64,000 nt of DNA from a virus (IMGVR_UViG_3300035208_005614:1-64000), one strand, 5' to 3'; shown: positions 29,957 to 64,000, counted from the stretch's first letter. Notes: generated from the letters alone by a model not told the origin. Made by a program: numbers and translations.

Positions 29957-30490
29957 ATGGAATCAACAGAACAAACAGTAAGTACACATACTAAAGGAGA
30001 AATTGAGGCACAAAAATACCTTAAACGCCTTGTTGCGCCCCACACAAAAGTAAGTAAAGAAGTTACAAATAAGGATCTAGATAAGGTAGTGGAAGAAGTT
30101 AAGATATTATATAACTTGTGCTATGTACAAAACGGGTTATATCTAGGAGCATATGCTATGCATCACTCACAGATCGAAGATAAAGATCCTATGAGTTTCT
30201 TTGTTATTGCAGATAAAAGAATCATTATAAACCCAAAGATAGTTAAACATAGTAATTATACCAAAGACTCTAAGGAACAATGTATGTCTTTTGCGAATGA
30301 AGGTCCAGTTGTTGTTCAGAGATGGCAAAAGATAGAACTTGAATATCAAACTATAATGACTGACCCAGAACATGATGGCAAATTTAAATTATCTGATATA
30401 ATTAAGGAATCATTAAGTGGTTTTGAAGCGTTTGTTATGCAACATGAAATCGATCATGGTAATGCAAAGTTTATTTATCAATTAAAATAA
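29957..30490 (+). CDS. def: Peptide deformylase-like protein
   Basis: Motif 3 QHEIDHGN (QHExDHxxG), motif 2-like EQCMSF (EGCLS) and a weaker motif 1 GLYLGAYAM. 177 aa. Confidence 0.6.
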   Translation: MESTEQTVSTHTKGEIEAQKYLKRLVAPHTKVSKEVTNKDLDKVVEEVKILYNLCYVQNGLYLGAYAMHHSQIEDKDPMSFFVIADKRIIINPKIVKHSNYTKDSKEQCMSFANEGPVVVQRWQKIELEYQTIMTDPEHDGKFKLSDIIKESLSGFEAFVMQHEIDHGNAKFIYQLK

Positions 30491-44731: not shown

Positions 44732-46636
44732 CTATGTAGTGTAACAAGGAATATAATAAGGAGTTCCTCCGACGAAAACTCTTATCTTTGCGTCTTGTAC
44801 TCCACCCACTGCAGCAAAAACCTTTTCTGCTCCATCAAAAGAAAATGCATATTCTAATCCTGTACTAGAATTGTTTAAATCAAAATCTATTCCTCCAATA
44901 GCTGTAGTGCTACTTGTGTGATTATAAATATACATACCACCACCAGAACTTGGACTTATGGCTTTAGTGTGAACAATACTTATTGCGTATCCTAGAGTGT
45001 CATGATCAATTTTCAAAGCAGGAGTATAAGAGTTAGATGAATTAGATATATAAATACCTGCCATATTATTAGCACTAGTATGAGTAACGCTTATTCCATA
45101 TCCATTTGCTGAATAAGCCAAATCTATCCCGTGACCACTGTTATTCCCAGTGGGGCCATCAATTTCAATACTTGTGTTACCTCCAGTATTATTTATAAAT
45201 ATAGGAGTTCCTGCAGATGAGTGATTAATATATAAGCTAGGACTTGCTCCTGAATTTCCTATATAAATTCCTCCAGAACTATGTGTTGCCGTTATTAATT
45301 GAGCATAATAATGACCATCATGTTCTATCTCTATACAAGGTTGTGAATTATTTGATCCATTACTTGTTTGAAATATATATGCACCTCTATTAATCACGTC
45401 AGAAGCATTTGTATAATAATAACCATAACCACTTACAGTAGATGAAATAAAAATAGCATTTGAAGTGCTTGCATTCATAGTAATTCTAATTGCTTTGTCT
45501 ACAGAAACTCCACCTCCCATTTGAGTTATAAGTGCATTAGTAGAATCATAAAAATTAATAGTGTTGTCTGCACTAGTAATTACCATTCTTTCTCCTATAC
45601 CAGATGCTGTTTGTATAACACCTCCAGTAATTGTTCCTCCATTTAAAGTTAAATCTGTTCCATCATATTTAAATATTTTGGTTGCTGAAGAACCTATTTC
45701 AAATTTAGGTTTTGTTACGGAGAAATCATACCCCAAAATAAATCCAGCAGTTGCATCTTGACCGAAGTCTGTTTTTCCATAATTAATCATTACATCGCCG
45801 TTCCCTGCAGTCGCAGTGATCCCATTAGCTCCAATACTCCAGTAATTTGTAGCAGATCCTATCTTACCCGCTGTAGCAGTTATTGTTCCAGCAAAAGACG
45901 CTGACCCATTTATGAGTATTTTTACATTTGCATTAGCAAGAGTTTGACTTGCTTGACATGCATAAAATCCCGTGTCATTCATTAATATACCTGCAGAACT
46001 AACAGTGCCGTCTCCAACGGTTGCTGAAGTTCTAATAACCGCATTTGTATTTACATTAAAAGTTGTGTAATTAATAATACCACTAGCAAAAGTTGGTGCA
46101 GAACCATCAGTAGGAAGATTAAAAGTAAGACCCAATACAGAGTCATATCCTCTAAGACCAGCTATATCCATGATAACTCCATTTGATCCTATACCTACAG
46201 TTGCTCCTGTTTTGATGATACCCGTAGTAGTTCCATATAAACTATCAGGACCTATAGTCCATCCACCAATAAGACCAGTCAACGCTTGAATATTTCCGCT
46301 AACATAAACGTTTGTAAATTCAGCATAACCAGTTTGTCCATCAATATAAAAACCGACTTTTTTAGGTTTCCAGTTAGTTGATCTGATCATATTATTGATC
46401 CAAAGATCAGCCATTCCTCCATCACTTTTAACTGGTTGAGTCTCTACGCTTCCATTGTCAATACTCCCATCGGTCTCTTCTGTAGATCCCGAGTTATTTG
46501 TTAGAGAATTTCCACTAGATGTATCAACTGAACCTGATGACGAAGTTGGATCTCCAATGTTAATAGTAGATCTATCCATATACACACCGTATGGACGATC
46601 TATATATTCATAGTTTTGGTTTGATGAGTTTGCCAT
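44732..46636 (-). CDS. Tail-fibre-like protein
   Basis: 634 aa, Gly/Thr/Ser/Asn-rich with repetitive beta-rich segments (TITGGVIQTASGIG...). The fibre assignment is structural context only. Confidence 0.45.
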   Translation of the reverse strand: MANSSNQNYEYIDRPYGVYMDRSTINIGDPTSSSGSVDTSSGNSLTNNSGSTEETDGSIDNGSVETQPVKSDGGMADLWINNMIRSTNWKPKKVGFYIDGQTGYAEFTNVYVSGNIQALTGLIGGWTIGPDSLYGTTTGIIKTGATVGIGSNGVIMDIAGLRGYDSVLGLTFNLPTDGSAPTFASGIINYTTFNVNTNAVIRTSATVGDGTVSSAGILMNDTGFYACQASQTLANANVKILINGSASFAGTITATAGKIGSATNYWSIGANGITATAGNGDVMINYGKTDFGQDATAGFILGYDFSVTKPKFEIGSSATKIFKYDGTDLTLNGGTITGGVIQTASGIGERMVITSADNTINFYDSTNALITQMGGGVSVDKAIRITMNASTSNAIFISSTVSGYGYYYTNASDVINRGAYIFQTSNGSNNSQPCIEIEHDGHYYAQLITATHSSGGIYIGNSGASPSLYINHSSAGTPIFINNTGGNTSIEIDGPTGNNSGHGIDLAYSANGYGISVTHTSANNMAGIYISNSSNSYTPALKIDHDTLGYAISIVHTKAISPSSGGGMYIYNHTSSTTAIGGIDFDLNNSSTGLEYAFSFDGAEKVFAAVGGVQDAKIRVFVGGTPYYIPCYTT

Positions 46637-46642
46637 ATTTTT

Positions 46643-48592
46643 TTATTCATTATCCATGTTTTCATCTGTTGTTGGTAGAGTTACAAGAGTCATACGAGAT
46701 AATTTACAAATTTGAGGACTTGAATCTCTTATAGACAAACTTACAAGTCTGCAGTAAGGAGGTTTACCTCTGGAACTATCTTTATCAGTTATTTTTACAA
46801 CAGAAAGACCTTTGGTTATTTTACCCTCTACTGGATAATATTCTTCGTTGTTTTCTAAGTTCACAAAAAGTTGCATACCAGAACCTCTTTCTACTTCTGT
46901 CATTAAGGCAATTAGTTTGCTTGAATATTCAAAAGCCTGAGTTGAAGAAGCATTCGCCTGTACCCCAACAGTTAATTTATTCGTATCTACTCTAAAATGT
47001 ATTGGTGATCCATCGTCTGTTTCTCCATTAAGAAATTCTTTAACAGCGTGATTGCCTGAAGTGTCCGTAAATTCCAATCTTCCAGAATCAGTTGCCTCAA
47101 CAAAAGTAGCAAATTCAGATGCTTTAACATTTGTATGAACATACCAATTTTGTTGAATAATATTAAATTCGACACAAACATCTTTAAGTATTTTATCAAT
47201 CGATCCATCAGGTTTATATAAAGTAACATCTCCAAGAGTAAAGAAGATGTTTCTTCCTTTCTTTCCTGCAGCAGAAGTTTCTTTACCTATTTTAGTTGCA
47301 CCCGTGATGTATTTTTCTATTTTATTTGAAATTAATTGTGGTACTCCCCCTGTTGTTGCATATATACCAGTGTAGTGTAGGAAGTACATTGTACCTATCA
47401 TTTTTACATAACCTTTTCTAGAAACACATCCAACATCAAGATCAAAGTTTTCTAAAGTATAATCATTCCACGAGATCATAGAATTTTTATTAGCAGCAAA
47501 CATAACGTTTCCTATATTTGTAAGTACGGTAATAGCATCATTCTCTCCTCCAGAAAGTTTAAAAGTATCGTATTGTTTTACATCACGTCCTGAAGTAGAT
47601 GGGTTATTTATCCATCTGAATATTTTTGAACCGTTGAATGTGCCCGCAATCCAAACTTCATCAGAAGCAAGGAGATTAGGTGTACCTGTCCAAGTTGCAA
47701 CCACACTGTCTTCATTAACTAAAGTAACAGTTATTGTAGTTATTAAGGTATTTCCTCTATAAATATCATATTGATTTGCTCCAGAATCTGCATACATATA
47801 TTTTGTTTCTGTTAATTTAACAGTAGATCCAGAGGCGGCTAATGGCATATCTTCATTAAGAAGACAGACAATACCTAATGGATAAGAAGAACGTAGAATA
47901 GTATTTTTATATCTAACTCCACTATGAATAAAGTCAGCCATGTATAATCTATTTTTGTAATAATTTATTCTAGAAGCTGGTGGGGTATTATAAAGATGAC
48001 CGCCTCCAGTTGTTGAAGTCGTAACTGTAACACCATCACTATTTATATATCTATTTGGAGAGTTCTGATTTACAAGAAAAACACATCCTTCTGCATATGT
48101 ATAGTCAAAAGTTCCTCCTGGAATATTTGTTCCATTACCTGTCAAAGGAATCCATTGATTACTATTATTAATATAATAAATAGTAGCAACTGTTCCAGTA
48201 TTATTATTAACAACATCAGTTAAAGAAAGGTCGTCTTTGACAAGGATAGAAAGGGATGTTGGAATATAAGTTTCAGCCATAAGAATAGTCTCAGAAATAT
48301 TAATAGAAAGAGTTGAGTTTTCGGCAACACTGATTCTATATAAACCTTGATTTGCAGCATTTTGAAATGAAAATAAACCGTAATTATTAGTAGTAACAAA
48401 AGGTTTTCCAACTGAGTTAGTACCTAAAACAGTTTGACCACCTCTTTTTTCAATAGTTCCAATAATAAGAGAACGTGCATTTTCAACATGTACGAACTCT
48501 GTCTTTTTTGCCATGTTAAAACTAACTAACGAATTAACGCCTTCAAAATATGGAATTATAAGTCTTTGTTGTTTTGCACCAGGTTCTAACAT
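46643..48592 (-). CDS. Virion structural protein
   Basis: 649-aa ORF in the structural string. No recognisable motif. Confidence 0.45.
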   Translation of the reverse strand: MLEPGAKQQRLIIPYFEGVNSLVSFNMAKKTEFVHVENARSLIIGTIEKRGGQTVLGTNSVGKPFVTTNNYGLFSFQNAANQGLYRISVAENSTLSINISETILMAETYIPTSLSILVKDDLSLTDVVNNNTGTVATIYYINNSNQWIPLTGNGTNIPGGTFDYTYAEGCVFLVNQNSPNRYINSDGVTVTTSTTGGGHLYNTPPASRINYYKNRLYMADFIHSGVRYKNTILRSSYPLGIVCLLNEDMPLAASGSTVKLTETKYMYADSGANQYDIYRGNTLITTITVTLVNEDSVVATWTGTPNLLASDEVWIAGTFNGSKIFRWINNPSTSGRDVKQYDTFKLSGGENDAITVLTNIGNVMFAANKNSMISWNDYTLENFDLDVGCVSRKGYVKMIGTMYFLHYTGIYATTGGVPQLISNKIEKYITGATKIGKETSAAGKKGRNIFFTLGDVTLYKPDGSIDKILKDVCVEFNIIQQNWYVHTNVKASEFATFVEATDSGRLEFTDTSGNHAVKEFLNGETDDGSPIHFRVDTNKLTVGVQANASSTQAFEYSSKLIALMTEVERGSGMQLFVNLENNEEYYPVEGKITKGLSVVKITDKDSSRGKPPYCRLVSLSIRDSSPQICKLSRMTLVTLPTTDENMDNE

Positions 48593-49197
48593 GTTATTTT
48601 GTTACTTTTTTTAAGATTATCTCTCCACCACATAGGTTGTAAATTTGTATAATGTACTGCTTTTAGAAATTGTTCTCTATCAGTTAAATCAAAATTAGCC
48701 AAAGGTACTTTATGATCTATCCACCACCCTTTCATTGTCCAATTCTCCCATGTCATGCCCGTAGTAAACTGATTTTCTAGATATTTTTTAAGTTCTGGAA
48801 TAGTACAACCTAGATCTCTTATAGCTGAACCTGACTTCGCATTGTCTTTAATGGCCATATAGAGTCTTTTACGTAATGATTTGGTCAGTTTATATTGGAT
48901 ATCTTTTTTAATTCGTTCTTTGTCATATCTTATTTTATTTATTATGATTTTTCTCTTATTTTTTGTATAGTATTTTTTATCTTTTTCTTGAAATTTTTCA
49001 GGATTTTCTTTGCGAGAATTAAATCGGTCTTTTAATATTTTTTCTCTGTTTTTAATATAATACCCCTTTTTATTTTTACTAATTTCTTCTTTATGTTCTG
49101 TATTATATTTTTTAGCTTTAACTGAAAGTTTTTCCTTGTTTTTTTTGTTGTATTCTTTTCTATACAACTTCCTTTTTAATGGGTTTTTAAGAGGCAT
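48586..49197 (-). CDS. HNH endonuclease
   Basis: C-terminal WWIDHKVPLANFDLTDREQFLKAVHYTNLQPMWWRDNLKKSNK fits the HNH core (DH..P...N......N.QP...N..K). Basic N-terminal half. Confidence 0.6.
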   Translation of the reverse strand: MPLKNPLKRKLYRKEYNKKNKEKLSVKAKKYNTEHKEEISKNKKGYYIKNREKILKDRFNSRKENPEKFQEKDKKYYTKNKRKIIINKIRYDKERIKKDIQYKLTKSLRKRLYMAIKDNAKSGSAIRDLGCTIPELKKYLENQFTTGMTWENWTMKGWWIDHKVPLANFDLTDREQFLKAVHYTNLQPMWWRDNLKKSNKITC

Positions 49198-49203
49198 ATA
49201 ATT

Positions 49204-50343
49204 TTATACATTACTTTGTCTTTGAATTCCCCACGCATCCAAGTTAGCATCACGTTTGACGCTAGCAATAATCATATCGTTGATTCCATTTGTATAGGAT
49301 TCAAGATACATTTTGTACTGTGGGTTTTGAAATTTTTGAAAGGCTCTATAAAGCATATAGTCCTTTATTACATATTCTCCTCCATTTGGAAGATCTACTT
49401 CATCGGTATTAAGAGACAACCTCGTTGCTCTTTTTTGATATATATAACTATAAGTTCCTCCTGCAACTGGGGTTGGTATGATTCCAAGCTTGAAACCTCT
49501 TATATAATATCTAGGACCAATTCCATTGAAGGAATATGCTTCTCTTAGAGGTATATATTCTATATCTCGTTTATTGAAACCCCATGACCCTGGACTTGTC
49601 GGATCGGTAATAACGAAAGCTATCAAGTGATCAAAATCAGTAGGAAGATCATATTCAATTTGACCTGCTACTAAAGTAAGTGTTGTAATAGCGGAAGATG
49701 AATATTCAACATTTGTTAGGTTAAGTTTGTTTCTCATTCTACCGTAAGCTTCAGAAGCCCATGAAAGAGCGTCCTCTCTAGTGACTAATTTTAATTCTTT
49801 GTTGCTCAACATACTGAAGAAATCAGCCAAGATTTGCTCAGTCATATTTGATTCAAATCCTATATAAGGAATATAGTTTGAAACCTGAGAGTAATTTGTA
49901 GTATTTGAATTGTAGAAACAATACCATCCATATCCTGTTGAGAATGTTTCATCGCTATAGGTCGTAAACCAATCGCTAGGTTGAAGATCTATAAATCCAG
50001 TTAGAGGAACTGCAGTTCCGATATCAAAAACGTCTGTAAGTGTATGGAAAAAACGAACTTGATTATAAGGAAGTATACTTACACGAGTGCTTTCAGCATG
50101 GGCAAATTTTGTAGGAGTAGTGATTGTAATAACCCCAGTATTGTTATTTACACTTTGTATTTGTACAACTTCAGCATCTTCAGCTCCAAAGTTGCTCAAA
50201 AGTAGATATGCATTAGTTGCATAAGCTGAATCTGTAGCGTTTAACACATTAAAACAGGTAATACCTGATAGTTGGTTTGTAACCAAGTAACTATATTTAC
50301 TTGACAGTGTTAATCTTCTATTGTCTGCTTCTAAAATTATCAT
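49204..50343 (-). CDS. Virion structural protein
   Basis: 379-aa ORF between the repeat-protein genes and the HNH gene. Confidence 0.45.
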   Translation of the reverse strand: MIILEADNRRLTLSSKYSYLVTNQLSGITCFNVLNATDSAYATNAYLLLSNFGAEDAEVVQIQSVNNNTGVITITTPTKFAHAESTRVSILPYNQVRFFHTLTDVFDIGTAVPLTGFIDLQPSDWFTTYSDETFSTGYGWYCFYNSNTTNYSQVSNYIPYIGFESNMTEQILADFFSMLSNKELKLVTREDALSWASEAYGRMRNKLNLTNVEYSSSAITTLTLVAGQIEYDLPTDFDHLIAFVITDPTSPGSWGFNKRDIEYIPLREAYSFNGIGPRYYIRGFKLGIIPTPVAGGTYSYIYQKRATRLSLNTDEVDLPNGGEYVIKDYMLYRAFQKFQNPQYKMYLESYTNGINDMIIASVKRDANLDAWGIQRQSNV

Positions 50344-50396: not shown

Positions 50397-51338
50397 TTAC
50401 AGTGACCTTGACTTGCCCCCGATGGGACTTCTTCCATACATCATTTTGAAAGATTCCATATTAGGATATCCCGATACATTAACTGAATCATGAACTTTTA
50501 TACTCAAATTAAGATCTTGCACCTCAACTGAGTCAAAAACATATATATCTCCTAGTTGTGTGTTGTCCAGAGAGGTCTCTGAGACATTAACAGAATCACT
50601 AACAGAAAGTATCAAATCTCTAATTTGGTCTATGTTTTCCGATATATTAATAGAGTCAACCACAGACACAGGCATCGCCAAGGAATCATTGATATTTGTT
50701 GAAATATTAATAGTTTCAATACTATTGATGCCCCCCAATTGGCTATTTGTGATCCCTGTTACTGGGTTTGATATATTAATTCGGTCATTGACTGAAGATA
50801 TAAGTAGGGGATCTCCATAAACCTCAAAAAGTAAAGTATCGGCTGCGGTGCTCCCCCAAGAACTTCCATCTGAACTATAACACCTATCTCCAACTGCATT
50901 TGTGCTACTATAACCGATGTTTACTGTGTTTGTATTAACTTCTCCTGCAGTTACATGAAAAACAATACAATAATAAGTTCCACTAGTTAAAACCTTCTTA
51001 TTTGCTCCAGTAAAAGTAAAAGTTTTTAGAACATAATCTGTCGGTTGCCCATTATCCTGAGTCAAACCTAAAGATGATACGGAAACAACATCTGAAGTCG
51101 CAAGTGGAGATCCTGTAGGCTTCATACTGCTATGATAAGAACCTGACGAAGCATAAAGATACGCCATCGCGTTCCCAGTCGGAGTTCCATTTTTCGCTAA
51201 TGAAAATTTACAGCTACTTAAAATATAATTTGATCCAGCAAGAAAAGACTCACCAAAATATATTGGTCCACCAAAATCAGGGTATAACTGATCTGCTCCA
51301 TTTAATGTTTCACTAAAACTTGTAATTAATGTTGCCAT
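50397..51338 (-). CDS. Repeat-containing fibre-like protein (lectin-like domain plus INISE-type repeats)
   Basis: The N-terminal approximately 170 aa are paralogous to the four lectin-like domains of the 2680-aa protein (..TGNAMAYLYASSGSY...PTGSPLATSD...FTFTGANKKVLTSGTYYCIVF). The C-terminal half carries INISNPVTGI / VVDSINISENI repeats. Confidence 0.55.
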   Translation of the reverse strand: MATLITSFSETLNGADQLYPDFGGPIYFGESFLAGSNYILSSCKFSLAKNGTPTGNAMAYLYASSGSYHSSMKPTGSPLATSDVVSVSSLGLTQDNGQPTDYVLKTFTFTGANKKVLTSGTYYCIVFHVTAGEVNTNTVNIGYSSTNAVGDRCYSSDGSSWGSTAADTLLFEVYGDPLLISSVNDRINISNPVTGITNSQLGGINSIETINISTNINDSLAMPVSVVDSINISENIDQIRDLILSVSDSVNVSETSLDNTQLGDIYVFDSVEVQDLNLSIKVHDSVNVSGYPNMESFKMMYGRSPIGGKSRSL

Positions 51339-51343
51339 ATTTT

Positions 51344-52462
51344 TTATGAATCCCAGTTAGCACTTCCTACAGGTTGACCTTTACTTCCTGAACTTGCCTG
51401 TGGATCTATTCTACTTGAAGAACTTGTAAAATTCATCATCCTTCCTTTTGCTGTCGGTGCTCTATTTAATTCTGAATCAGTTTTACTTACAGGTTTAAAT
51501 ACAGATCCAGTAGCAATTACTTCATCAAGTCCCTTAGAAGCTTTTGGTTTGCTTCCTCCAGGAGACGGTGAAAATCTAAATGATTCTAATATCAATAATT
51601 CACTTATATTTACTTGATCTGAAACATTTAATGGAGAAAAAGTTTCATTAAGTATATTTTCACTAATATTTGTCTCATCTATAATATTGATATCTCCTAA
51701 TTGAGCATTTTCAATAGAAATTATTTCTGTTGAATATATTGTGTCTATTACAAAAAGAGAAAGAATTCCAGTGTCTGTAAAATTTTCTGAGATAACAACA
51801 GAATCAATTAAATTAATATCTCCCAATTGTCCTAAATTGGTGATGTTTTCAGAGATATTAATAGTGTCTATGCTTACTAAAGAAGTTTCTCCAGAGTTGA
51901 TTATCTCTTCTGTAATATTTACAGAACTAAATACATTTATTCCACCCAAATCTGGAGAATTAAGAGTTACTTCTTCTAAAATGTTTATGGAATCGCTTAT
52001 CTCTATATAAGAAAATAATAAACCGTTGTTATCCTCTGAAAGATTAACTTCATCAAATACAAACAAATTAATTTCTTCCAGACCACTGTTTTCTTCTGAG
52101 ATATTTACAAGATCAAATACATTCAAATTATAAAAATCAAAGAAAGAAGATATGGTAATTTCTTCTGAAATACTAATATTATCAACTGTAAATATATTAA
52201 TTTCTTCTGAACCAGTTGCTTCTTCTGAAATATTAATTTCATCAAATACAAAAGCATCGATTTCTTCTAGACCTATCGATTCTTCTGAAATATTTACAAG
52301 ATCAAACACATCCAAATTATAAGCACTGGATGACTCAGATATAATAACTTCTTCTGAGATATTTACATCATCACCAATATTAACATCATATATCAAAAGT
52401 TCCCCATTATATGAATATTTAGGTGAATTGTATCCTATTCCTATTTCGTTATATGTAATCAT
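51344..52462 (-). CDS. Repeat-containing fibre-like protein (INISE-type repeats)
   Basis: 372 aa dominated by VFDLVNISEE / INLFVFDEVNLSED repeat units of the same family. Confidence 0.55.
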   Translation of the reverse strand: MITYNEIGIGYNSPKYSYNGELLIYDVNIGDDVNISEEVIISESSSAYNLDVFDLVNISEESIGLEEIDAFVFDEINISEEATGSEEINIFTVDNISISEEITISSFFDFYNLNVFDLVNISEENSGLEEINLFVFDEVNLSEDNNGLLFSYIEISDSINILEEVTLNSPDLGGINVFSSVNITEEIINSGETSLVSIDTINISENITNLGQLGDINLIDSVVISENFTDTGILSLFVIDTIYSTEIISIENAQLGDINIIDETNISENILNETFSPLNVSDQVNISELLILESFRFSPSPGGSKPKASKGLDEVIATGSVFKPVSKTDSELNRAPTAKGRMMNFTSSSSRIDPQASSGSKGQPVGSANWDS

Positions 52463-52467
52463 GTATT

Positions 52468-55400
52468 TTAAAAGAATCCTGCTATCTTGCCTACAGGTTT
52501 TGAATCTCGACCTTGTCCTACAAGTTTAACACTAGTACCTCTTCCTACAGGTTGCATCTTGTTTCCCTGTGCAACTGGTTTACTATCTGAAGGTGAAAAT
52601 CTGAATGATTCTGAAACAATTGATTCTGAGATGTTTATTTGATCTAAAACACTTATATCATAATAAAAACCTAATCTTATATCAGAATCAATCTCAATTT
52701 CATCAAAAACATTAATATCTCCAAGTTGTCCGTTATTTTCAACATTCTCTGAAATTTCTATATTTTCTGCTACTTGTATTCCAGTAAGAAGTAAATCTAC
52801 CAATTCAATATCCGATATTGAGATTGAATCGTATATATTTATATCTCCAAGTTGTGGGTTAGAAAGGATTACATTTTCTGAAATATTTATACCGTCAGAG
52901 ACGTTTATACCTCCAAGTAGAGGGTTCTCCTGATTATCGGTATCCAAAACATTGACAGAATCTGAGACATTAATTCCTCCCAAATAAGAATTACCCAAGA
53001 TAATATTTTCTGAAATCTCAACCAAATCTTTTACTGAGATCTCTTGTTCTCCTGTATCTTGGAAATTTTCAGAAATATTTATCGTATCAAAAATGTCGAT
53101 TCCTCCTAATTGAGAATTTTCTACAGTTACTTCTTCAGAGATCTCAATTGAATCGTATTTGTCTATACCTGACTCCAAATAATCAACTATTCCGATATCA
53201 TCAGAAACATTAATATCTCCTAGCTGAGAATTTTCTAAAGTAACCGATTCAAGAATATCAATAAGATCAAATACAGAGACTTCTTGTTCTCCTGTATCTT
53301 GGAAGTTTTCAGATATATTGATTATGTCGTTGACAGAAACATTCAATTCTCCTGTATTTGTAATATTTTCTGAAATATTTACATTATCAACAATATTTAT
53401 ATCTCCTAACTGAGAATTATTTATATTTAAATATTCAGATATGTTTACAATTTCTATAATATTTATAGATCCTAATTGCGAGTTACTTAATGCTACATTA
53501 TCTGAAATATTTATAGAATCAGTAGCAAAAATATTTCCAAGTTGAGTTCTTATGACCAAATCTTCTGAAATATTTATAGAATCAGTAGTAGAGATATCTC
53601 CTAACTTGGAGTTATCCAATACGACTTCTTCTGTAATATGAATCACATCGTCAACAATAATAATGAGACTTCCTCCACCTGTGCCGAAATCAACAATATC
53701 TACTTCATCTGAAACGTTGATTCCTCCTAGTTGAGAATTTGAAACGATGACTGACTCTGAAATATTTACTGTATCTATTACTGAAGTGCTTAATATCCCC
53801 GCGTCTGTAAAGTTTTCTGAAATATTTATGTTGTCTACAACAGAAATATCCCCTAACTGTCCAGTTAGATTTACATTTTCAGATATATCTATTGTGTCGT
53901 AAACACTTATTCCTCCTAGATTTGAGTTAGAAACGGTAACTGATTCAGAAATGTTGACTGAGTCTGAAACGTTAATACCTCCTAGATTTGAGTTAGAAAC
54001 GGTAACTGATTCAGAGATATTTACTGAGTCTGAGACGTTGATACCTCCTAGATTTGAGTTAGAAACTGTAACTGATTCAGTGATGTTTATTGAATCGTAT
54101 ACTGAAATATTCTCTTCTCCCATATCTACGACATTTTCTGATATATTGATGGTGTCAAAAACTGAAGTATTCAATACTCCTGTGTCTGTAAAGTTTTCAG
54201 AAATATTTATCGTGTCATAGATATTAATATTTCCTAGTTGTGAGTTTAGAACAATTACTGATTCTGAGATATTGATGGTATCAAATACTGAAGTATTCAA
54301 CACTCCTGTATCCGTAAAGTTTTCTGAAATATTTACTGTATCCGAAAGATTAATATCTCCTAACTGAGAGTTTGAAATGGTAATTGTTTCTGAGATATTT
54401 ACTGTGTCAGAAACATCAATGTTACCCAACTGAGAGTTTGAAATAGTAACTGACTCAGAAATGTCCACTGTGTCATAAACATTTATATCACCTAATTGAG
54501 AGTTTGAAATAACAACTGACTCTGAAATATTTATTGTGTCAAAAACTGAGATAGAACTGAATCCTGTATCTGTAAAGTTTTCTGAGATATTTATTGAATC
54601 TGAGACATTAATATCTCCAAGATTTATAGAGGAATTGGTTGATTCTGAAACATTAATTGAATCATAAACATTAATAGTTCCTAGTTGAGTATTCGTGACT
54701 ATAAATGATTCTGAGATATTTACTATATCTATTATATTAATTTCTCCAAGAGTAGTTGAAGAAATAATTGATTCTGAAATATTTATTGTGTCTGATACGT
54801 TTATGTTTCCTAGTTGAGAATTTGAAATTACAACTGACTCTGAAATATTTATGGTATCTATTACTGAGGTACTTAATACACCTGTATCTGTAAAGTTTTC
54901 TGAAATATTTATTGAATCTGAAACATTTATGTCTCCTAGTTGAGAGTTTGAAACAGTAGTTAATTCTGAGATATTTATAGAATCATATACATTAATTTCT
55001 CCTAATTGAGAGTTTGTAAGTGTAACTGATTCAGATATGTTTATAGAATCATATACGTTAATTCCTCCTAGCTGAGAATTTGAAACAACAACCGATTCAG
55101 ATATATTAACTAAATCAACAACTGAAATATTTGAGACTCCAGTATCTGTAACATTTTCTGAGATGTTTATTGAATCTACAACGGAAATATCTCCTAACTG
55201 ACCAGTTAGACTGATACTTTCAGAGAAATTTATTGAATCAAAAACGTTGATATCACCTAACTGAGAGATTGAAACTATGACTGATTCAGAGATATCTACT
55301 AAGTCTGAAACGTTGATACCTCCTAGATTTGAGTTAGAAACTGTAACTGATTCAGAGATATTTACTGAATCCGAAACGTTGATGTTTCCTAGACTTGAAT

Positions 55401-58400
55401 TAGAAACACTTATTGATTCAGACATATTTATTGAATCAAAGACATTTATTCCTCCTAACTGAGTATTTGTAAGTGTAACTGATTCAGAAATATTAATAGA
55501 ATCGTAAACAGAAAGAGAGAATAAACCTGAATCTACAAAATTCTCAGAAATATTTATTGTGTCAAAAACATTAATGTCTCCTAATTGAGAATTTGAAATG
55601 GTAACTGACTCTGAAATATTTATAGTGTCATAAAGATTTATATAAGAAAGTATAGAATCAGTTAAATCTTCTGAGATATTTATTGAATCATATATATTTA
55701 TTCCTCCTAACTGAGCGCTTGTAAGAGTAACTGATTCAGAAATGTTTACTGAATCATAAAGATTTACATCTCCAAGAGGAGATCTAACTACAACTGACTC
55801 AGAGACATTAATTGAATCAGATAAAACATCGTCACCATATATTCCAAAAGCAAAACCTGGTGTATCTCTTGTCCAAGTCCCTCCAGAATAATATGCAGAA
55901 TCTCCCACTGCAGTTGACTGATCAATTGGAGCAAAAGTCTGGAAACCATAATCTCCAGTTGTTGACTCAACGGTCATGTAATAATGACCTGGAGCTAGAG
56001 AAATTATATTAGCTCCAGAAAATGTGAAGGTTGTGTAAGGACCTGGGAATGACCAATTAAGCGTATTAGCCTCTATTTGGTCTGATACGGCAAGTAATGT
56101 GCCTGGGATAGAATTAACCCCGTAGGTGCCAGAATCTGTGTAAATACGGGCTGTTAGATAACCTGTGCGTCCTCCATTTCTATACAAATAACGACTTGTA
56201 GTTCTTACTCTTGTTGTTTGACTGATTGTAAATGTTTCCCCAAAGGCATAATCTGTATAACCTATTCCACTATTTGTAAGATTTAAAGCATAATAATCAA
56301 GTAAGGTTGTGGTACTAGTTATATACAAAAATCCTTCATCCACTATATTTTCAGAAATATTTATATCATCTCCAACATCTATTGATAAATCATTAATAGG
56401 CGGAAGAACTGAAACACTTTCAGATATATTAATATCTTCTCTTGGATGTCTATCTTCAGCAACATAAAAAATAAGATCGTCATTTGCACCTATTCCAGGT
56501 AAACCAACCCAATTACCTCCTAATTTAACAGATGCATTACCTGGATGAGTTGGAGAGCCCAAATCACTGTAAATTAATAAGGTTCCACTTGTCGGAGTAG
56601 ACTCAATTGTTATTACATAATATTGACTTGCTGTAAGTGCTATTTTATTTATTCCCGAGAAATTAAAATAGATTATTCCATTTGAAGCAGGAATCGTTGA
56701 AATGTCTATTGAATCAGAAGTAGCAAGTAATGTATCTGGTATTGAATCATAACCAAACGTTCCTGTCATCGTGTAGATCTTTGAAACTACAGTTCCTGTT
56801 GCTCCATTACCATTTAGATAGAATCCAGAAAAATCTAAGGTTCTATTTGCTTTACATAGGAATGATTGTCCGAAGAATTGAAAACCGTAGAATGTACTAT
56901 TTGCATGAGTATAATCATAACTATCTATGTAATTAAGATTTCCAATGTCTCCAAGTTGTCCTGTGTTTGTTACACTTTCAGAGATATTTATTACATCATA
57001 ACTAATAACTATTAAAGGATTAACTTGGTATGATTCAGAAATATTTACTGTGTCATATGTATTTGCATATAAGAATGGATTTTCTATAGTAACGGATTCA
57101 GATATATTAACGACATCGTTTAATATTGGATGACCGTGAGCAATAAAGACAGTATTATAATTTTGTAACGCAGTCCAAACACCTCCACTCTGAGAAGCAG
57201 AATTACCGTTTGTAAAATTCTCTGGTGTATTAGCTGAGACTACTGGGTTGTTAGATGCTCCTCCACCTGGAAAATCAAAAACTAAGAAATAATCTGTATT
57301 TTCACTTAATGAAATTCTATTACTTCCTGAAAATGGGAAATTAAAATACGCACCACTTCCGCTATATGGAGGTAAAGTAGAAGCTTCAACTGAATCTGAT
57401 GTAGCCAAAGCACTCCCTGTAGGAACAGCATCAACTCCATATGTTCCCGTTGAAGCATATATTTCGACATAAATAGGTCCTGAAGGAGCGTTAAATTTAG
57501 CCAAAAGAACATCAACACTATCCAAGATCATTGAAGTTGTGCTCTTTGTCCCCTGTGCCCACGCATGATTAGCATACAAACCTCCATACCATGCGCCAGA
57601 TACAGTAGTAAAACTATCGTAAATAACGACATTTTTAATTATGTCTCCTAACTGTCCTGTATCGTTGGGAACATCTGAAATATTTAATGTATCGTAAAGA
57701 TTAATTCCTCCTAACTGAGTACTTGAAAGAGTCTTTGATTCAGAAATATTTATTGTATCTACGACAGAAACAGCTAGGGGTTCTTCAGAATTTTCACTTT
57801 CAGATATGTTTATGGAATCAAAAATAGATACGCTTAATGGTTCTTCTACATTAATACTTTCTGATACATTTATTGAGTCATATACATTTATTCCTCCTAA
57901 CTGAGCGTTTGTAAGAGTAACCGATTCAGAAATGTTTATTGAATCATAAAGATTTATATCTCCAAGTTGAGATTCTGTGATTGTTTTTGACTCTGATATA
58001 TTTACTGAATCATATAGATTTATTCCGCCTAGATTTGGATTAGAAATTGTAACTGACTCAGAGATGTTTACTGAATCATATAGACTTATATTTACGTCAA
58101 GAGTTTCTGTAATACTTTCTGATATATCTATTGAATCATATATATTTATTCCTCCTAGATCTGGATTAGAAATAGTAACTGATTCAGATATATTTACTGA
58201 GTCATCTTTATTTATTCCTCCGAGTTGAGAATTTGTAACAATTACATCTTCTGAAGTATCTATTGAATCATATAAATTAATACTTCCTAGTTGCCCTGTT
58301 CTAGTTATAGATTCAGAAATATTTATATCGTCATGAACATTTATTCCGCCAAGTTGCCCTGTTCTAGTTATAGATTCTGATATATTTATGTCATCGTGAA

Positions 58401-60510
58401 CACTAAGAGGTAGTATGGGACTTGCTGAAATGGTTACGTCAGCATCTTCTGTAATATTAATAGTTTCATATTTAAGAAATTGGGTAGAGATAATTTCAAC
58501 TTGTGGAACACCGTTATAAACTGCAAAATAAAGATCGTCAGTATAACCAGTCCATGTTGTGCCGTTGGAAGAACCACATCTATTTCCTCCTGCTCCAGTT
58601 CCTCCACCTCCTATTTGTAAATAATTACCTCCATCTCCCCCTGGATAGTAAAAAACTAAACAATAATAAGTTGCCGCCGACATGAGATATCTACCCGCTA
58701 CTTCAAAATCAAAAGAGACTTCTTGAAAAGCAGAAGTTGAAATAGTTTGTACATTTACCCCTTTAGAGGTAGCAAGAGCAGCACCAGTTGGTTTACCTGA
58801 AGTCGTTCCGTAAGTTCCCGTGTGCGCGTATAATTTAGCATAGATAAAACCTGTAGGGTTAGTGTACCTTTTAAAATAACCTATTCCTTTCCCTAAAATA
58901 CCAGCATTGGTATTTGTAAAAGATTGACCTGAATATGGAGCGGCACTATAAATAGTTAAATAACCTGGTGCAGAAAGATAATTTTCAATTAAATAAGTTA
59001 CATAAAGAGGTTCAGCAGCAACATTTAAATCATCATGAACTTGAATTTCAAGATAATGAATTACCGTTGTAGATTCTGATATATTAATTAATTGGTTTTG
59101 ATATGTTTCTCTAGCGTTAAGAACTTTTAATTCAACCCAACCTTCATTAATAAAAATACTTTCTATTCTACTTACGTACTCTATAGGTGTAGTTAAAGCA
59201 ACAGTAATACTCTCTGAAATATTAACTTTTTCAGGTATAAAAACTTGTCTTTGGACGAGATCTTCTATTTTTATTCTATCAAAAACCGAAAGGGGCAAAG
59301 AAATTGCGACTTTAACATCTTCCCTTATTTTTGGAGATTCAAAATTATATCCTTGCCATTTAGTTGCTGTCCCCACCGTTAATCCAGTAGGTGCTTCCTG
59401 AATACCTATATCATCGTGAACATAGATATTTATATTATTAGGATCGTTTATTTCTATAGAATTGAATACATGAGATGTCCCAGAATTCCAACAATATAAT
59501 CCTCCAAGAACCCACATATTTCTTTCTGTTACTCCAGAAACAGATCTAACAAGAACTCCATCAAGCCAGAAGGTAATATTCCCGTTTAGATCGTAAATAA
59601 TTTCATAAGTTCTTTCTACTGTTCCGTATCCTGAACCTATCGCAATTTGTGTTGTTCCTGCCTGTGTAATCAAAACACCTGAAGATTCCCATCTATATAA
59701 GAAAGAATAACTATTTGTAGGACCTGAAAAACCGATGTTATAATAAGAACCTGCTGTCGAGGTAAATTTGGCAATAAATTTAATAGACATTCCAGGATTA
59801 ATCAATGGAACTCTATAATTTATTGAAGATCTAGGACCACTTCCCGTTAATCCAGTTAGAGTCAAAAGACCCCCAGAAGCCGCCCATTGAGCTGGAAAAG
59901 TGGGTTCTGCCCAGTACATAAGATCAAGAACATTTAACTTAGTATTACCGTTAAATGGTTCAAACCATGGTGTTGCTGGTGGAAAAACATCAACAGAATC
60001 AACATTCATGATCATTCCTGAGTCATAAACGTTACCGAATTGGACTTTAAGATCTGAATCTAAGATTGCAGTAAGTGATCTATAAACAAGAGCTCCATCA
60101 ATAAAAAAGTTTGCAAATCCATTAGGTAACCATTCTATTTCAAAATTGTGTTGTGTAGCGTTAGCTACTATTCCAGTATTAAAATAAGTGTTTACAGTTC
60201 CATTGTAAATTTGGATATAAATATATGTTGCTCTATCCCAAGTCTGAGCAAAGGCGATAGTATCTGTTGGACCTACAAAACCTAAAGCGTGTCCGCTCAA
60301 TGCAGTATCTGGACAGTTTGCTCTAAAAGAAAGAGTTGTACCAGGACCAAAAGTATCATTGCTTCTAACTATACAAGTGGGGCTTCCTGCTCCTCCACCA
60401 GTAAGTTTAAGCATTCCACTAGCAATAGTAACGTTACCCGCGTATGTCCATTCCGCGGTGTTTATAGGTAAACTATCAAATGTGTCTATTAATCTCGGTA
60501 CGATCGACAT
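52468..60510 (-). CDS. Giant 2680-aa repeat protein: four paralogous lectin-like domains plus more than 50 copies of a 22-aa repeat
   Basis: Uninterrupted 8 kb ORF. The 22-aa repeat unit approximates SNSQLGDINVYDSINISESVTV. Four about 150-aa paralogous domains (..TGTYG...P.G.ALATSD.I...T......F.F.G.N.I.L....YY..) lie in the N-terminal half. Probable receptor-binding fibre. Confidence 0.7.
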   Translation of the reverse strand: MSIVPRLIDTFDSLPINTAEWTYAGNVTIASGMLKLTGGGAGSPTCIVRSNDTFGPGTTLSFRANCPDTALSGHALGFVGPTDTIAFAQTWDRATYIYIQIYNGTVNTYFNTGIVANATQHNFEIEWLPNGFANFFIDGALVYRSLTAILDSDLKVQFGNVYDSGMIMNVDSVDVFPPATPWFEPFNGNTKLNVLDLMYWAEPTFPAQWAASGGLLTLTGLTGSGPRSSINYRVPLINPGMSIKFIAKFTSTAGSYYNIGFSGPTNSYSFLYRWESSGVLITQAGTTQIAIGSGYGTVERTYEIIYDLNGNITFWLDGVLVRSVSGVTERNMWVLGGLYCWNSGTSHVFNSIEINDPNNINIYVHDDIGIQEAPTGLTVGTATKWQGYNFESPKIREDVKVAISLPLSVFDRIKIEDLVQRQVFIPEKVNISESITVALTTPIEYVSRIESIFINEGWVELKVLNARETYQNQLINISESTTVIHYLEIQVHDDLNVAAEPLYVTYLIENYLSAPGYLTIYSAAPYSGQSFTNTNAGILGKGIGYFKRYTNPTGFIYAKLYAHTGTYGTTSGKPTGAALATSKGVNVQTISTSAFQEVSFDFEVAGRYLMSAATYYCLVFYYPGGDGGNYLQIGGGGTGAGGNRCGSSNGTTWTGYTDDLYFAVYNGVPQVEIISTQFLKYETINITEDADVTISASPILPLSVHDDINISESITRTGQLGGINVHDDINISESITRTGQLGSINLYDSIDTSEDVIVTNSQLGGINKDDSVNISESVTISNPDLGGINIYDSIDISESITETLDVNISLYDSVNISESVTISNPNLGGINLYDSVNISESKTITESQLGDINLYDSINISESVTLTNAQLGGINVYDSINVSESINVEEPLSVSIFDSINISESENSEEPLAVSVVDTINISESKTLSSTQLGGINLYDTLNISDVPNDTGQLGDIIKNVVIYDSFTTVSGAWYGGLYANHAWAQGTKSTTSMILDSVDVLLAKFNAPSGPIYVEIYASTGTYGVDAVPTGSALATSDSVEASTLPPYSGSGAYFNFPFSGSNRISLSENTDYFLVFDFPGGGASNNPVVSANTPENFTNGNSASQSGGVWTALQNYNTVFIAHGHPILNDVVNISESVTIENPFLYANTYDTVNISESYQVNPLIVISYDVINISESVTNTGQLGDIGNLNYIDSYDYTHANSTFYGFQFFGQSFLCKANRTLDFSGFYLNGNGATGTVVSKIYTMTGTFGYDSIPDTLLATSDSIDISTIPASNGIIYFNFSGINKIALTASQYYVITIESTPTSGTLLIYSDLGSPTHPGNASVKLGGNWVGLPGIGANDDLIFYVAEDRHPREDINISESVSVLPPINDLSIDVGDDINISENIVDEGFLYITSTTTLLDYYALNLTNSGIGYTDYAFGETFTISQTTRVRTTSRYLYRNGGRTGYLTARIYTDSGTYGVNSIPGTLLAVSDQIEANTLNWSFPGPYTTFTFSGANIISLAPGHYYMTVESTTGDYGFQTFAPIDQSTAVGDSAYYSGGTWTRDTPGFAFGIYGDDVLSDSINVSESVVVRSPLGDVNLYDSVNISESVTLTSAQLGGINIYDSINISEDLTDSILSYINLYDTINISESVTISNSQLGDINVFDTINISENFVDSGLFSLSVYDSINISESVTLTNTQLGGINVFDSINMSESISVSNSSLGNINVSDSVNISESVTVSNSNLGGINVSDLVDISESVIVSISQLGDINVFDSINFSESISLTGQLGDISVVDSINISENVTDTGVSNISVVDLVNISESVVVSNSQLGGINVYDSINISESVTLTNSQLGEINVYDSINISELTTVSNSQLGDINVSDSINISENFTDTGVLSTSVIDTINISESVVISNSQLGNINVSDTINISESIISSTTLGEINIIDIVNISESFIVTNTQLGTINVYDSINVSESTNSSINLGDINVSDSINISENFTDTGFSSISVFDTINISESVVISNSQLGDINVYDTVDISESVTISNSQLGNIDVSDTVNISETITISNSQLGDINLSDTVNISENFTDTGVLNTSVFDTINISESVIVLNSQLGNINIYDTINISENFTDTGVLNTSVFDTINISENVVDMGEENISVYDSINITESVTVSNSNLGGINVSDSVNISESVTVSNSNLGGINVSDSVNISESVTVSNSNLGGISVYDTIDISENVNLTGQLGDISVVDNINISENFTDAGILSTSVIDTVNISESVIVSNSQLGGINVSDEVDIVDFGTGGGSLIIIVDDVIHITEEVVLDNSKLGDISTTDSINISEDLVIRTQLGNIFATDSINISDNVALSNSQLGSINIIEIVNISEYLNINNSQLGDINIVDNVNISENITNTGELNVSVNDIINISENFQDTGEQEVSVFDLIDILESVTLENSQLGDINVSDDIGIVDYLESGIDKYDSIEISEEVTVENSQLGGIDIFDTINISENFQDTGEQEISVKDLVEISENIILGNSYLGGINVSDSVNVLDTDNQENPLLGGINVSDGINISENVILSNPQLGDINIYDSISISDIELVDLLLTGIQVAENIEISENVENNGQLGDINVFDEIEIDSDIRLGFYYDISVLDQINISESIVSESFRFSPSDSKPVAQGNKMQPVGRGTSVKLVGQGRDSKPVGKIAGFF
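52560..55890. repeat. 66-bp-period coding tandem repeat, about 50 units
   Basis: Direct reading of the DNA shows reiterated ...AATATTTCAGA(G/A)ATATTTAT(T/G)GAATC... units. Shorter runs lie at about 57650-58450 and in the two downstream genes. Confidence 0.7.
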
Positions 60511-61835: not shown

Positions 61836-62198
61836 TTACCATTTTTTACCTTTTTTTCTAGCAGTTAATCTCCACTTTTTTCTAACCTCATTATAAGCAT
61901 TCATACAAAGTCTACATCTACATTTATGATGTCTATACATTGAATACATTCCATGTTTTGATTCCCCGTTATCAATCTTATTCTTTTCTTTGTGACATAT
62001 ATGACAAAGTAATTGACACTTAGAAACTTCTAATAAAACTTTTTGTATAGAATAAGACCATTTTTCTGTTATGGTAAATTTTTTTGTTTTAGGATCAATA
62101 TGATCAAACTCTAATCCTTCTTTACTTCCACAAACAACACATTTTCCTCCTAATAATTCTATTAATAAACTAATTCTTTTTTTATAATGTCTTATCAT
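61836..62198 (-). CDS. HNH endonuclease embedded in the tRNA array
   Basis: CVVCGSKEGLEFDHIDPKTKKF...LLCHICHKEKN is a canonical HNH pattern (C..C...DHI.P.....N..LC..CH..K). Confidence 0.6.
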   Translation of the reverse strand: MIRHYKKRISLLIELLGGKCVVCGSKEGLEFDHIDPKTKKFTITEKWSYSIQKVLLEVSKCQLLCHICHKEKNKIDNGESKHGMYSMYRHHKCRCRLCMNAYNEVRKKWRLTARKKGKKW

Positions 62199-63858: not shown

Positions 63859-64000
63859 TTAATGTCCCCTGATGGGGCTAAACGGCTATGCCCAAACAAG
63901 CTATTCGTCGTTCAGACCTTAAAGATTTCTCTCTAAAACCCTCCGTAACGAGACTCTTAACCTTCTAAGGCTAAGACTTATAGCGAGTAAGTGTATTTAG

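Follow-up and report, generated by a model that had tools for sequence, protein, structure and literature searches.

We identified three consecutive genes for repeat-built, putative fibre proteins in a 64,000-nucleotide (nt) stretch of phage DNA, IMGVR_UViG_3300035208_005614:1-64000 (the window; its phage is designated WIN). The first encodes a giant protein of 2680 amino acids (aa), here termed G, and is followed by genes for two smaller paralogues, B (372 aa) and C (313 aa). All three proteins carry the same 20-22-aa repeat unit and end in a related basic peptide, and their genes adjoin that for an SU10-type adaptor. We put at about one in two the probability that G, B and C are accessory fibres of the virion that are docked by their C-termini and adhere to glycans in a multivalent manner.

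Three putative fibre genes built from one repeat unit

The genes lie on the minus strand in the coding order G, B, C with 5-nt gaps between them. The open reading frames (ORFs) have exactly the coordinates given in an initial annotation, which was made from the sequence alone. The genes and the repeat-bearing segments of G are as follows.

52468-60510, minus strand: fibre gene G, 2680 aa (ORF, translation and segmentation; identical in a second contig)
51344-52462, minus strand: fibre gene B, 372 aa, with an N-terminal YN..YNG motif, about 13 units and a 79-aa ESFRFSPS tail
50397-51338, minus strand: fibre gene C, 313 aa, with an L5 domain, about 5 units and the tail ESFKMMYGRSPIGGKSRSL
58996-59406, minus strand: 'mid' segment of G, aa 369-505, 2-3 degenerate units (segmentation)
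57631-58461, minus strand: first stalk of G, aa 684-960, 13 units (Tandem Repeats Finder (TRF), segmentation and a hidden Markov model (HMM) of the unit)
52609-55812, minus strand: long stalk of G, aa 1567-2634, about 50 contiguous units, predicted single-chain right-handed beta-helix

From its N-terminus, G consists of two domains (A1 and A2), degenerate units, a lectin-like domain (L1), 13 units, L2, a linker of three units (aa 1134-1190), L3, a linker of two units (aa 1360-1400), L4, about 50 units, and the C-terminal peptide. When G is cut at the I-N-I-S-E anchor, the resulting units measure 20-22 aa and fall into two subtypes, a 22-mer (INISESVTVSNSQLGGINVYDS) and a 20-mer (INISENFTDTGVLSTSVFDT), often in alternation. 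Positions L14, G15 and I17 of the 22-mer are invariant in 32 of 32 units, and D21 (31 units), E5 (30), I3 and N11 (29 each) and N18 (28) are nearly so. The HMM recognizes 58 clear copies in G. Including degenerate copies, G has about 70 units by eye, which with about 13 in B and about 5 in C gives approximately 90 for the three proteins together. The units of B are acidic and more degenerate (VNISEE...), and its short N-terminal motif is not accompanied by a globular domain. The exact C protein is present in four contigs from four samples. Source samples are ENA ERZ27247350, SRR6484787, SRR18595299 and JGI 3300014204.

At the nucleotide level, TRF reports periods of 66 nt and 126/132 nt at 53.5-55.8 kb and 57.85-58.2 kb. 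The 22-aa (66-bp) repeat that the initial annotation had described in all three genes is confirmed, as are its estimate of about 50 copies between 52560 and 55890 in an unbroken frame and its shorter runs near 57650-58450. The in-frame periodicity of G is far above the chance level. N-x-S/T sequons, contributed by INISE and INVSD units, number 99 in G compared with 52 +/- 6 in shuffled sequences. A scan for promoters and terminators found no enrichment over shuffles.

It is hardly credible that G is a mis-joined or inflated repeat array produced during assembly. Its 8043-nt frame is uninterrupted in a genome of about 33% GC, its units share a mean nucleotide identity of 66%, and the longest exact internal repeat is 46 nt, below the length of a typical Illumina read; on the basis of the last two values an artefact at the DNA level was rejected. 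In addition, a 38.9-kb contig with different ends (ENA ERZ27247350, k141_1893287), which overlaps the window by about 15.6 kb judging by coordinates, is identical over the 12.9 kb compared, the entire G gene included. An orthologous gene of 2209 aa was likewise assembled identically from two samples. The observation that favors an artefact, a possibility that the initial annotation had itself raised, is that two Logan contigs break inside G at approximately 53941, near near-identical 66-nt copies at 53912-54087. Three units are 92% identical, and their copy number is the only uncertain point of the array. A 2648-aa protein, P0132, is the same protein as G called from Met33 and not a variant. 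Exact-match scans with one interior 26-mer returned no match in JGI metagenome contigs or IMG/VR, and the comparison of copy number, which the initial annotation had proposed for related phages, is limited to the relative described below (58 clear units in G, 32 in its orthologue).

The stalk is predicted to be a minimal beta-helix

Structural modeling predicts that the stalk is a right-handed parallel beta-helix, as the initial annotation had suggested. In the model each repeat forms one coil of three beta-strands and the coils stack as a right-handed helix. With only 20-22 aa each, the coils are minimal; they are also highly regular and lack long loops or insertions. The best structural matches of the model are non-enzymatic adhesins, with HMW1 and EtpA on top, and an antifreeze protein.

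Sequence comparison gave no corresponding family. A 215-aa stalk segment matched no Pfam family even at E <= 10, and the whole fibre proteins matched no beta-helix repeat model in Pfam or NCBIfam. Searches of PDB sequences with the L-domain profile, the stalk and the C-terminal tail returned either nothing or chance-level matches only (an enolase, and TraC at E 0.003).

Lectin-like domains of G and C

The four paralogous domains that the initial annotation had noted in G, together with the fifth that opens C, were recovered by HMM (four in G and one in C) and share 27-32% pairwise identity. Two further domains, A1 and A2, precede them in G.

58459-58995, minus strand: L1, aa 506-684 of G, lectin/carbohydrate-binding module (CBM)-like beta-sandwich (paralogue alignment, HMM)
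57109-57645, minus strand: L2, aa 956-1134 of G (paralogue alignment, HMM)
56431-56955, minus strand: L3, aa 1186-1360 of G, between the three-unit and two-unit linkers (segmentation, alignment, HMM)
55810-56325, minus strand: L4, aa 1396-1567 of G (paralogue alignment, HMM)
50784-51338, minus strand: L5, aa 1-185 of C (alignment, structural model)
59956-60510, minus strand: A1, aa 1-185 of G, concanavalin A (ConA)/GH16-like jelly roll, apparently non-catalytic (paralogy to A2, profile match)
59407-59955, minus strand: A2, aa 186-368 of G, second ConA/GH16-like domain (paralogy, profile match)

The AlphaFold2 model of L5, built with 46 relatives, is a beta-sandwich with a predicted local distance difference test score (pLDDT) of 89.3. 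The L domains are thus predicted to have a lectin/CBM-type fold, in line with the initial annotation. Structural matches include a capsid chain, 9jwb_Z, which we take to be gp25 of cyanophage A4. Among viral models in BFVD the fold occurs in minor tail proteins, DUF4815, VriC-like proteins and collagen-repeat fibre proteins. The same fold also occurs in PHR domains, which are not lectins, and we infer carbohydrate binding by the L domains from the fold only.

The sole named sequence family that matches the L domain is NCBIfam choice-of-anchor R (choice_anch_R, NF041539). L5 scores 22.4-24.6 bits (E 2e-5 to 1e-4), which is under the curated cut-off of 30 bits. The alignment is near full length (positions 23-152 of the 155-position profile against residues 31-173), and 14 of 47 members of the L family match at E <= 0.01, the best at 2.2e-10. 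At best, the L domain may be a divergent sister of choice-of-anchor R.

A1 and A2, which the initial annotation had overlooked, are paralogous to each other (E 8e-11). Their profile matches the GH16 beta-glucanase 3wvj (E 2.9e-4) and, more weakly, agarases, a carrageenase and a galectin. However, the GH16 catalytic motif E-x-D-x-x-E is absent, the EIDIE of 3wvj aligning with IAFAQ in A1 and YSFLY in A2. Given the profile match and the replacement of EIDIE, both domains appear to be ConA-like and non-catalytic. No Pfam model matched either of them. A search for homologues of A1-A2 returned nothing, and their one detectable homologue is the orthologue in the related phage L007. Approximately 14 relatives of the stalk carry Pfam Laminin_G_3 in an N-terminal position like that of A1 and A2.

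A common C-terminal peptide

Apart from the repeats, the one element that all three paralogues have in common is a basic C-terminal tail with the pattern ESFRFSPS..[KR]P[VI]G. This peptide, like the division of the units into two subtypes, was missed by the initial annotation.

52471-52608, minus strand: C-terminal peptide of G, ESFRFSPSDSKPVAQGNKMQPVGRGTSVKLVGQGRDSKPVGKIAGFF, putative cap and docking motif, common to G, B, C and orthologues

The tail of G reads ESFRFSPSDSKPV..KPVGKIAGFF and that of B ESFRFSPSPGGSKPKA..QPVG..; C ends in the tail given above. In G there are 8 K/R residues compared with 2 D/E in the 46 residues that follow the initial E.

The family plan commonly consists of one or more variable N-terminal globular heads, a stalk, and a short C-terminal peptide. 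The heads vary across the repeat family, whereas a few classes of tail recur: ESFRF..[KR]P[VI]G, MRS..QQYPLGMDD..IL, ..LGVG, and a GPRG-rich class. Paralogues within one genome have a single tail type (three of three in WIN, two of two in L007, three of three in L030). In C and the stand-alone L proteins the L domain starts at residue 1, so that no space remains for an N-terminal anchor. One such protein, of 183 aa in L018, consists of an L domain with a short C-terminal peptide and is encoded one small gene upstream of the adaptor gene. Taken from these sequence patterns, it is probably the C-terminal peptide that anchors the fibres.

Genomic context

The fibre genes are encoded on the same strand as the adaptor gene, with spacings of 5 to 53 nt, and because the adaptor gene adjoins them on that strand we place them in the virion module. 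The phage structural context proposed by the initial annotation is therefore upheld. Three neighboring genes bear on the interpretation.

49204-50343, minus strand: SU10-type adaptor, 379 aa, directly downstream of C (Pfam PF24175, E 2.4e-19)
46643-48592, minus strand: nozzle-like protein, 649 aa (comparison with homologues)
44732-46636, minus strand: 634-aa protein, a conventional tail fibre or spike by its look (translation only)

Residues 190-364 of the adaptor match the 194-position SU10_adaptor model. The additional N-terminal portion of approximately 190 aa has no family assignment and is a candidate docking platform. That portion keeps its length throughout the clade, whose adaptors measure 369-387 aa, except in L023 and L028 (461-463 aa).

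The nozzle-like protein contains an insertion of 43-60 aa (at aa ~90-135) that resembles two fibre units (LSINISETILMAE..LSILVKDDLSLTDVV). The insertion is found in WIN, L007, L014, L019 and L020 and is absent from more distant nozzle homologues. We considered whether it tracks unit-type fibres. However, the correspondence is imperfect, as L030 has unit-type fibres and lacks the insertion, and it may only reflect relatedness; a role of the insertion in docking is at most conjectural.

The 634-aa protein has a Ser/Gly-rich N-terminal part, a 'GFYIDGQTGYAEF...GGWTIGPDSLYG' motif and a repetitive C-terminal half rich in Gly, Ser, Thr and Asn. By its sequence it is a candidate for the primary receptor-binding protein.

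Related loci and distribution of the family

Fifteen IMG/VR loci, several of them from contigs of 97-101 kb, carry the nozzle gene, and 14 of these also have the adjoining adaptor gene. In the 14 related loci that extend over the adaptor region, adaptor and fibre slot are in synteny. This slot, which lies upstream of the adaptor, is hypervariable, and most of the related loci in which it is present have fibre-like genes there. INISE/ITE-type fibres with [KR]P[IV]G tails occupy it in WIN, L007, L014, L019, L022 and L030. Poly-(SSST) proteins are found there in L002/L024 (IMGVR_UViG_3300033145_002224) and L023 (IMGVR_UViG_3300022871_000009), with sizes of 1032, 596, 238 and 220 aa and a 2759-aa giant in L023; they represent a different solution for a long spacer. 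The remaining loci have other proteins in the slot. An N-terminal motif of the type YN..YNG(D/E)xL is common to B, the 220-aa poly-(SSST) protein, P0046, P0047 and P0136. In more distant phages, repeat or L proteins are likewise encoded between head and tail genes, as with one downstream of an SU10-type major capsid protein (MCP) in L015 and one between a portal/MuF gene and further head genes in L016.

WIN is most closely related to L007/L001, with identities of 86% in the adaptor and 84% in the nozzle. The giant protein of this relative is 2209 aa long and retains A1 and A2, but has a Gly-rich domain instead of L1 and only two L domains. The locus has two fibre genes, B and C being replaced by one 593-aa protein composed of units, an L domain, further units and a tail. 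Between the two giants, identity is 45% in A1, 80% in A2, 40% in the mid segment, 31-39% in the L domains, 40-48% in the stalk and 45% at the C-terminal end. Compared with the adaptor and nozzle, the fibres, with the exception of A2, therefore diverge much faster than the tail core. The initial annotation had called the system modular and possibly rapidly evolving; the anatomy of the proteins bears out the former, and these identities, together with the differences in domain content and gene number, bear out the latter.

The initial annotation also stated that the repeat family resembles nothing recognized. This holds for Pfam, PHROGs and GenBank phages. Searches of Pfam, PHROGs, NCBIfam and PADLOC with G, B and C gave only a weak match to phrog_5229 and the sub-threshold match to choice_anch_R. 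Megablast and tblastn searches of 50,697 GenBank phage records with the region, the stalk, C, the adaptor and the nozzle gave a single weak match, to the adaptor, in Microcystis phage MaAM05, and there is no close relative among cultured phages. However, choice-of-anchor R is a distant relative of the L domain, and the repeat family is abundant in metagenomic data. A word-indexed search turned up 88 stalk relatives and 43 L-domain relatives, nearly all unnamed, and an exhaustive HMM search of 1.84 billion proteins found 575 unnamed cluster representatives at E <= 1e-3 (50 at E <= 1e-30), including other proteins of 2000-3136 aa.

Comparison with known systems

The general category, a phage adhesion fibre, is familiar, and the repeat family itself is undescribed. 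What is notable in G is its size, its beads-on-rod architecture and its probable C-terminal anchoring. The stalk would work like the rods of TpsA adhesins (EtpA, HMW1) and the passengers of autotransporters (Pet, VacA p55, pertactin), and also like the bodies of phage tailspikes, although it is not a member of any of these families. Compared with the TpsA adhesins and autotransporters, the fibres lack a TPS domain, a signal peptide and a beta-barrel translocator, and at 7-16% identity there is no sequence similarity. No Pfam or NCBIfam model of the TPS (haemagglutination activity) domain was matched, and the N-terminus of G is instead a ConA-like domain. The fibres further differ in being phage-encoded within a virion module, in their more regular units, and in the globular lectin-like domains between stalk segments.

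Phage tailspikes and fibres such as phi29 gp12, Pam1, the CBA120 tailspikes and Andhra gp15 have wide, irregular coils with enzymatic or binding grooves, N-terminal anchors, and trimers of parallel helices. In contrast, the predicted coils of the window fibres are minimal and the common element is C-terminal. Among proteins attached to the capsid, A4 gp25, T4 Hoc, phi29 gp8.5 and SU10 gp10 have neither a beta-helix stalk of tens of coils nor serial lectin domains. The cement protein gp25 of cyanophage A4 consists of a CBM and a short anchor peptide on the capsid (PMC12002296), and is a structural precedent for a CBM that a linear peptide holds on the capsid. However, its anchor is N-terminal, whereas the putative anchor of the window fibres is C-terminal. 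In SU10, gp10 is encoded between the MCP gp9 and the adaptor gp11; it has an immunoglobulin-like fold resembling that of minor capsid or head-fibre proteins and is unseen in the cryo-electron microscopy map (PMC9509320).

The combination of one domain with alternative C-terminal anchors is likewise found in choice-of-anchor R proteins. However, these are bacterial surface proteins with cellular sorting signals rather than phage proteins, and have no known function. A1 and A2 resemble the ConA-like superfamily (GH16) by profile, but lack the catalytic motif.

Proposed function and alternative explanations

If G, B and C are C-terminally docked adhesion fibres, each would be a thin rod with one three-stranded coil for every 20-22-aa unit. 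At approximately 0.48 nm per coil, about 70 coils would give G a stalk of about 34 nm, and with its six globular domains the protein could measure on the order of 50-60 nm. The rod would bear non-catalytic beta-sandwiches of the lectin/CBM type, two ConA/GH16-like ones at the tip and four L domains along G, and one L domain on C. The basic C-terminal peptide, with its ESFRF cap and [KR]P[VI]G motifs, would dock the fibre at the capsid or the head-tail junction, so that the N-terminal heads would face outward. Weak, multivalent and reversible binding to surface or matrix polysaccharide could then make productive tail contact likelier, while the nozzle and the 634-aa tail-fibre-like protein would be responsible for committed receptor binding. 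Reach and specificity might be retuned as modules are shuffled and units gained or lost. In this proposal the sequence anatomy, paralogy, synteny, family distribution and divergence are observed and the folds are predicted; we infer the virion location, polarity, oligomeric state, ligand and length of the fibres.

Several observations weigh against this proposal. The alignment behind the stalk model was built from slices of the same protein, and the five models have pLDDT values of 62-84. The 634-aa 'tail fibre' matches no family in any library searched. Two proteins encoded upstream of the window end, of 961 and 348 aa, were examined as possible head proteins and have no match in PHROGs, Pfam or PDB and no similarity to the SU10-type MCPs of related contigs; the latter is only 34% identical in the close relative, and on that ground it is unlikely to be the MCP. 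The anchor of a conventional fibre is its conserved end. Between G and the L007 giant it is A2 that is 80% identical, compared with 45% for the C-terminal end, and the polarity of the fibres could therefore be reversed.

With that polarity, the proteins would be primary tail fibres, A1-A2 docking G on the adaptor and the three products forming either one segmented fibre or three types of fibre with the main receptor-binding activity, in the manner of SU10 gp12/gp13 or T4 gp34-37. We regard this as rather unlikely, although it accounts for the conservation of A2, which approaches that of the adaptor, and adaptors of the SU10/T7 type do carry a fibre-dock domain (PMC9509320). Domains with the L fold also occur in tail and baseplate receptor-binding proteins. 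Consecutive fibre genes commonly make one fibre, as in T4 and SU10. However, B and C have neither an A domain nor any common N-terminal element, the common element being C-terminal, and the N-terminal heads vary widely in the family. The fibre genes of SU10, moreover, follow the adaptor gene rather than precede it (PMC9509320), and the window has another gene, downstream of the nozzle, that is tail-fibre-like. The abundance of sequons raises an improbable alternative, that the proteins are glycosylated, mucin-like fibres that serve mainly for shielding or colloidal behavior (masking of the capsid, prevention of aggregation, resistance to proteases) instead of lectin-type adhesion. Phage glycosyltransferases would then act on the NxS/T-rich units or, in relatives, on the poly-Ser/Thr stalks. 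The adhesins HMW1 and EtpA, the top fold matches, are N-glycosylated at N-x-S/T sequons. The poly-(SSST) giants of relatives occupy the same slot, a nucleotide-sugar epimerase is encoded in the window (5435-6448), GT4 and GT1 genes lie between those for the MCP and the fibres in L015, and in four lineages a methyltransferase-like gene and a gene with a GT-A look (described below) are found beside the fibre genes. The glycosyltransferase assignment of the latter is weak, however, the Asn of the sequon is not conserved in the family (units of the ITESVT type), so that an Asn ladder may have produced the sequons incidentally, and shielding would leave six lectin-like domains unexplained.

The likeness of the stalk to secreted bacterial beta-helix adhesins, and of the L domain to a domain of bacterial surface proteins, would suit proteins made in the infected cell that are not part of the virion, such as released adhesins or matrix-binding factors. 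This is quite improbable given that no TPS or autotransporter domain and no secretion-type family was matched in Pfam or NCBIfam, and that the genes are tightly packed on one strand within a structural block, with the adaptor and nozzle genes following directly in most related loci. An enzymatic role for the beta-helix, as a tailspike or depolymerase that breaks down capsule or exopolysaccharide, we consider very unlikely. Its minimal, regular coils lack loops for a catalytic groove, no lyase or hydrolase was matched in Pfam or NCBIfam, the best structural matches are non-enzymatic adhesins and an antifreeze protein, and the GH16-like domains lack the catalytic motif.

The fibres of phages determine where phages stick and whom they infect. 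To our knowledge, nearly all solved phage fibres are N-terminally anchored trimers from cultured phages. The family described here, which is absent from Pfam, PHROGs and the GenBank phage records yet has 575 metagenomic cluster representatives, appears to combine an adjustable-length minimal beta-helix 'ruler' with lectin domains and short anchor peptides as plug-in parts. Tentatively, it may constitute an unrecognized, widespread class of fibre, a single-chain beta-solenoid rod with a linear C-terminal peptide as anchor in which both anchors and lectin heads are interchangeable. Such fibres would be the opposite of canonical tail fibres, which are N-terminally anchored trimers, and a counterpart in phages of the bacterial 'choice-of-anchor' principle. 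If its modular design is confirmed, the family would provide a new way to annotate hundreds of dark-matter phage proteins and a natural modular scaffold that displays binding domains at set distances from the particle. It would also be a test case for the retuning of adsorption by repeat gain or loss and domain shuffling in an uncultured clade of podophages, the largest contigs of which reach about 100 kb.

Other features of the window and related loci

A pair of genes, one for a class-I methyltransferase-like protein of approximately 190 aa and one for a conserved protein of 271-314 aa, accompanies the repeat-fibre genes of four phage lineages, which differ in tail class.

L011:1197-2718: methyltransferase-like/conserved pair, about 8 kb upstream of G, past window position 64000
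L014:1516-3708: methyltransferase-like/conserved pair
L015:8485-9829: methyltransferase-like/conserved pair
L016:15029-16521: methyltransferase-like/conserved pair

The conserved protein is 43-61% identical across lineages and has a GT-A-like look (ILIAVPSTG..., E-x-D). One of the four members weakly matches Pfam Glyco_tranf_2_3 (E 0.05), and no PDB match was found. By sequence and location it could be a fibre-modifying or fibre-assembly factor, and the fibres may be glycosylated by the pair.

The minus-strand structural block begins with an HNH gene and genes for 169-aa and 75-aa proteins, followed by G, B, C and the adaptor. After the adaptor come a 203-aa HNH-like insert, the nozzle-like and 634-aa proteins, proteins with peptidoglycan hydrolase domains and a 2390-aa protein. 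The 203-aa ORF (48586-49197) is very basic and looks like an HNH-type homing-endonuclease insertion at the adaptor/nozzle junction, where L007 has a different HNH-like ORF of 143 aa. A further HNH gene is located at 61836-62198. The 2390-aa giant ORF (31653-38825) closes the block after genes with M23 peptidase and L-Ala-D-Glu peptidase domains. No Pfam model matches this ORF and its only match in PHROGs is a weak one to HNH; the product may be an ejection or internal virion protein.

The window also carries replication genes, SbcCD and a UvsX-like recombinase, and encodes a GroEL-type chaperonin (8096-9751; phrog_5725, E 1e-114) and a peptide deformylase-like protein (29957-30490). A 20.8-kb contig, L034 (JBAZRG010000008.1), carries adaptor and nozzle genes of the clade, is similar to L029, and is binned in a groundwater metagenome-assembled genome of 'Candidatus Paceibacterota' (candidate phyla radiation). 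This may hint at the host range of this low-GC clade, or may reflect mis-binning.

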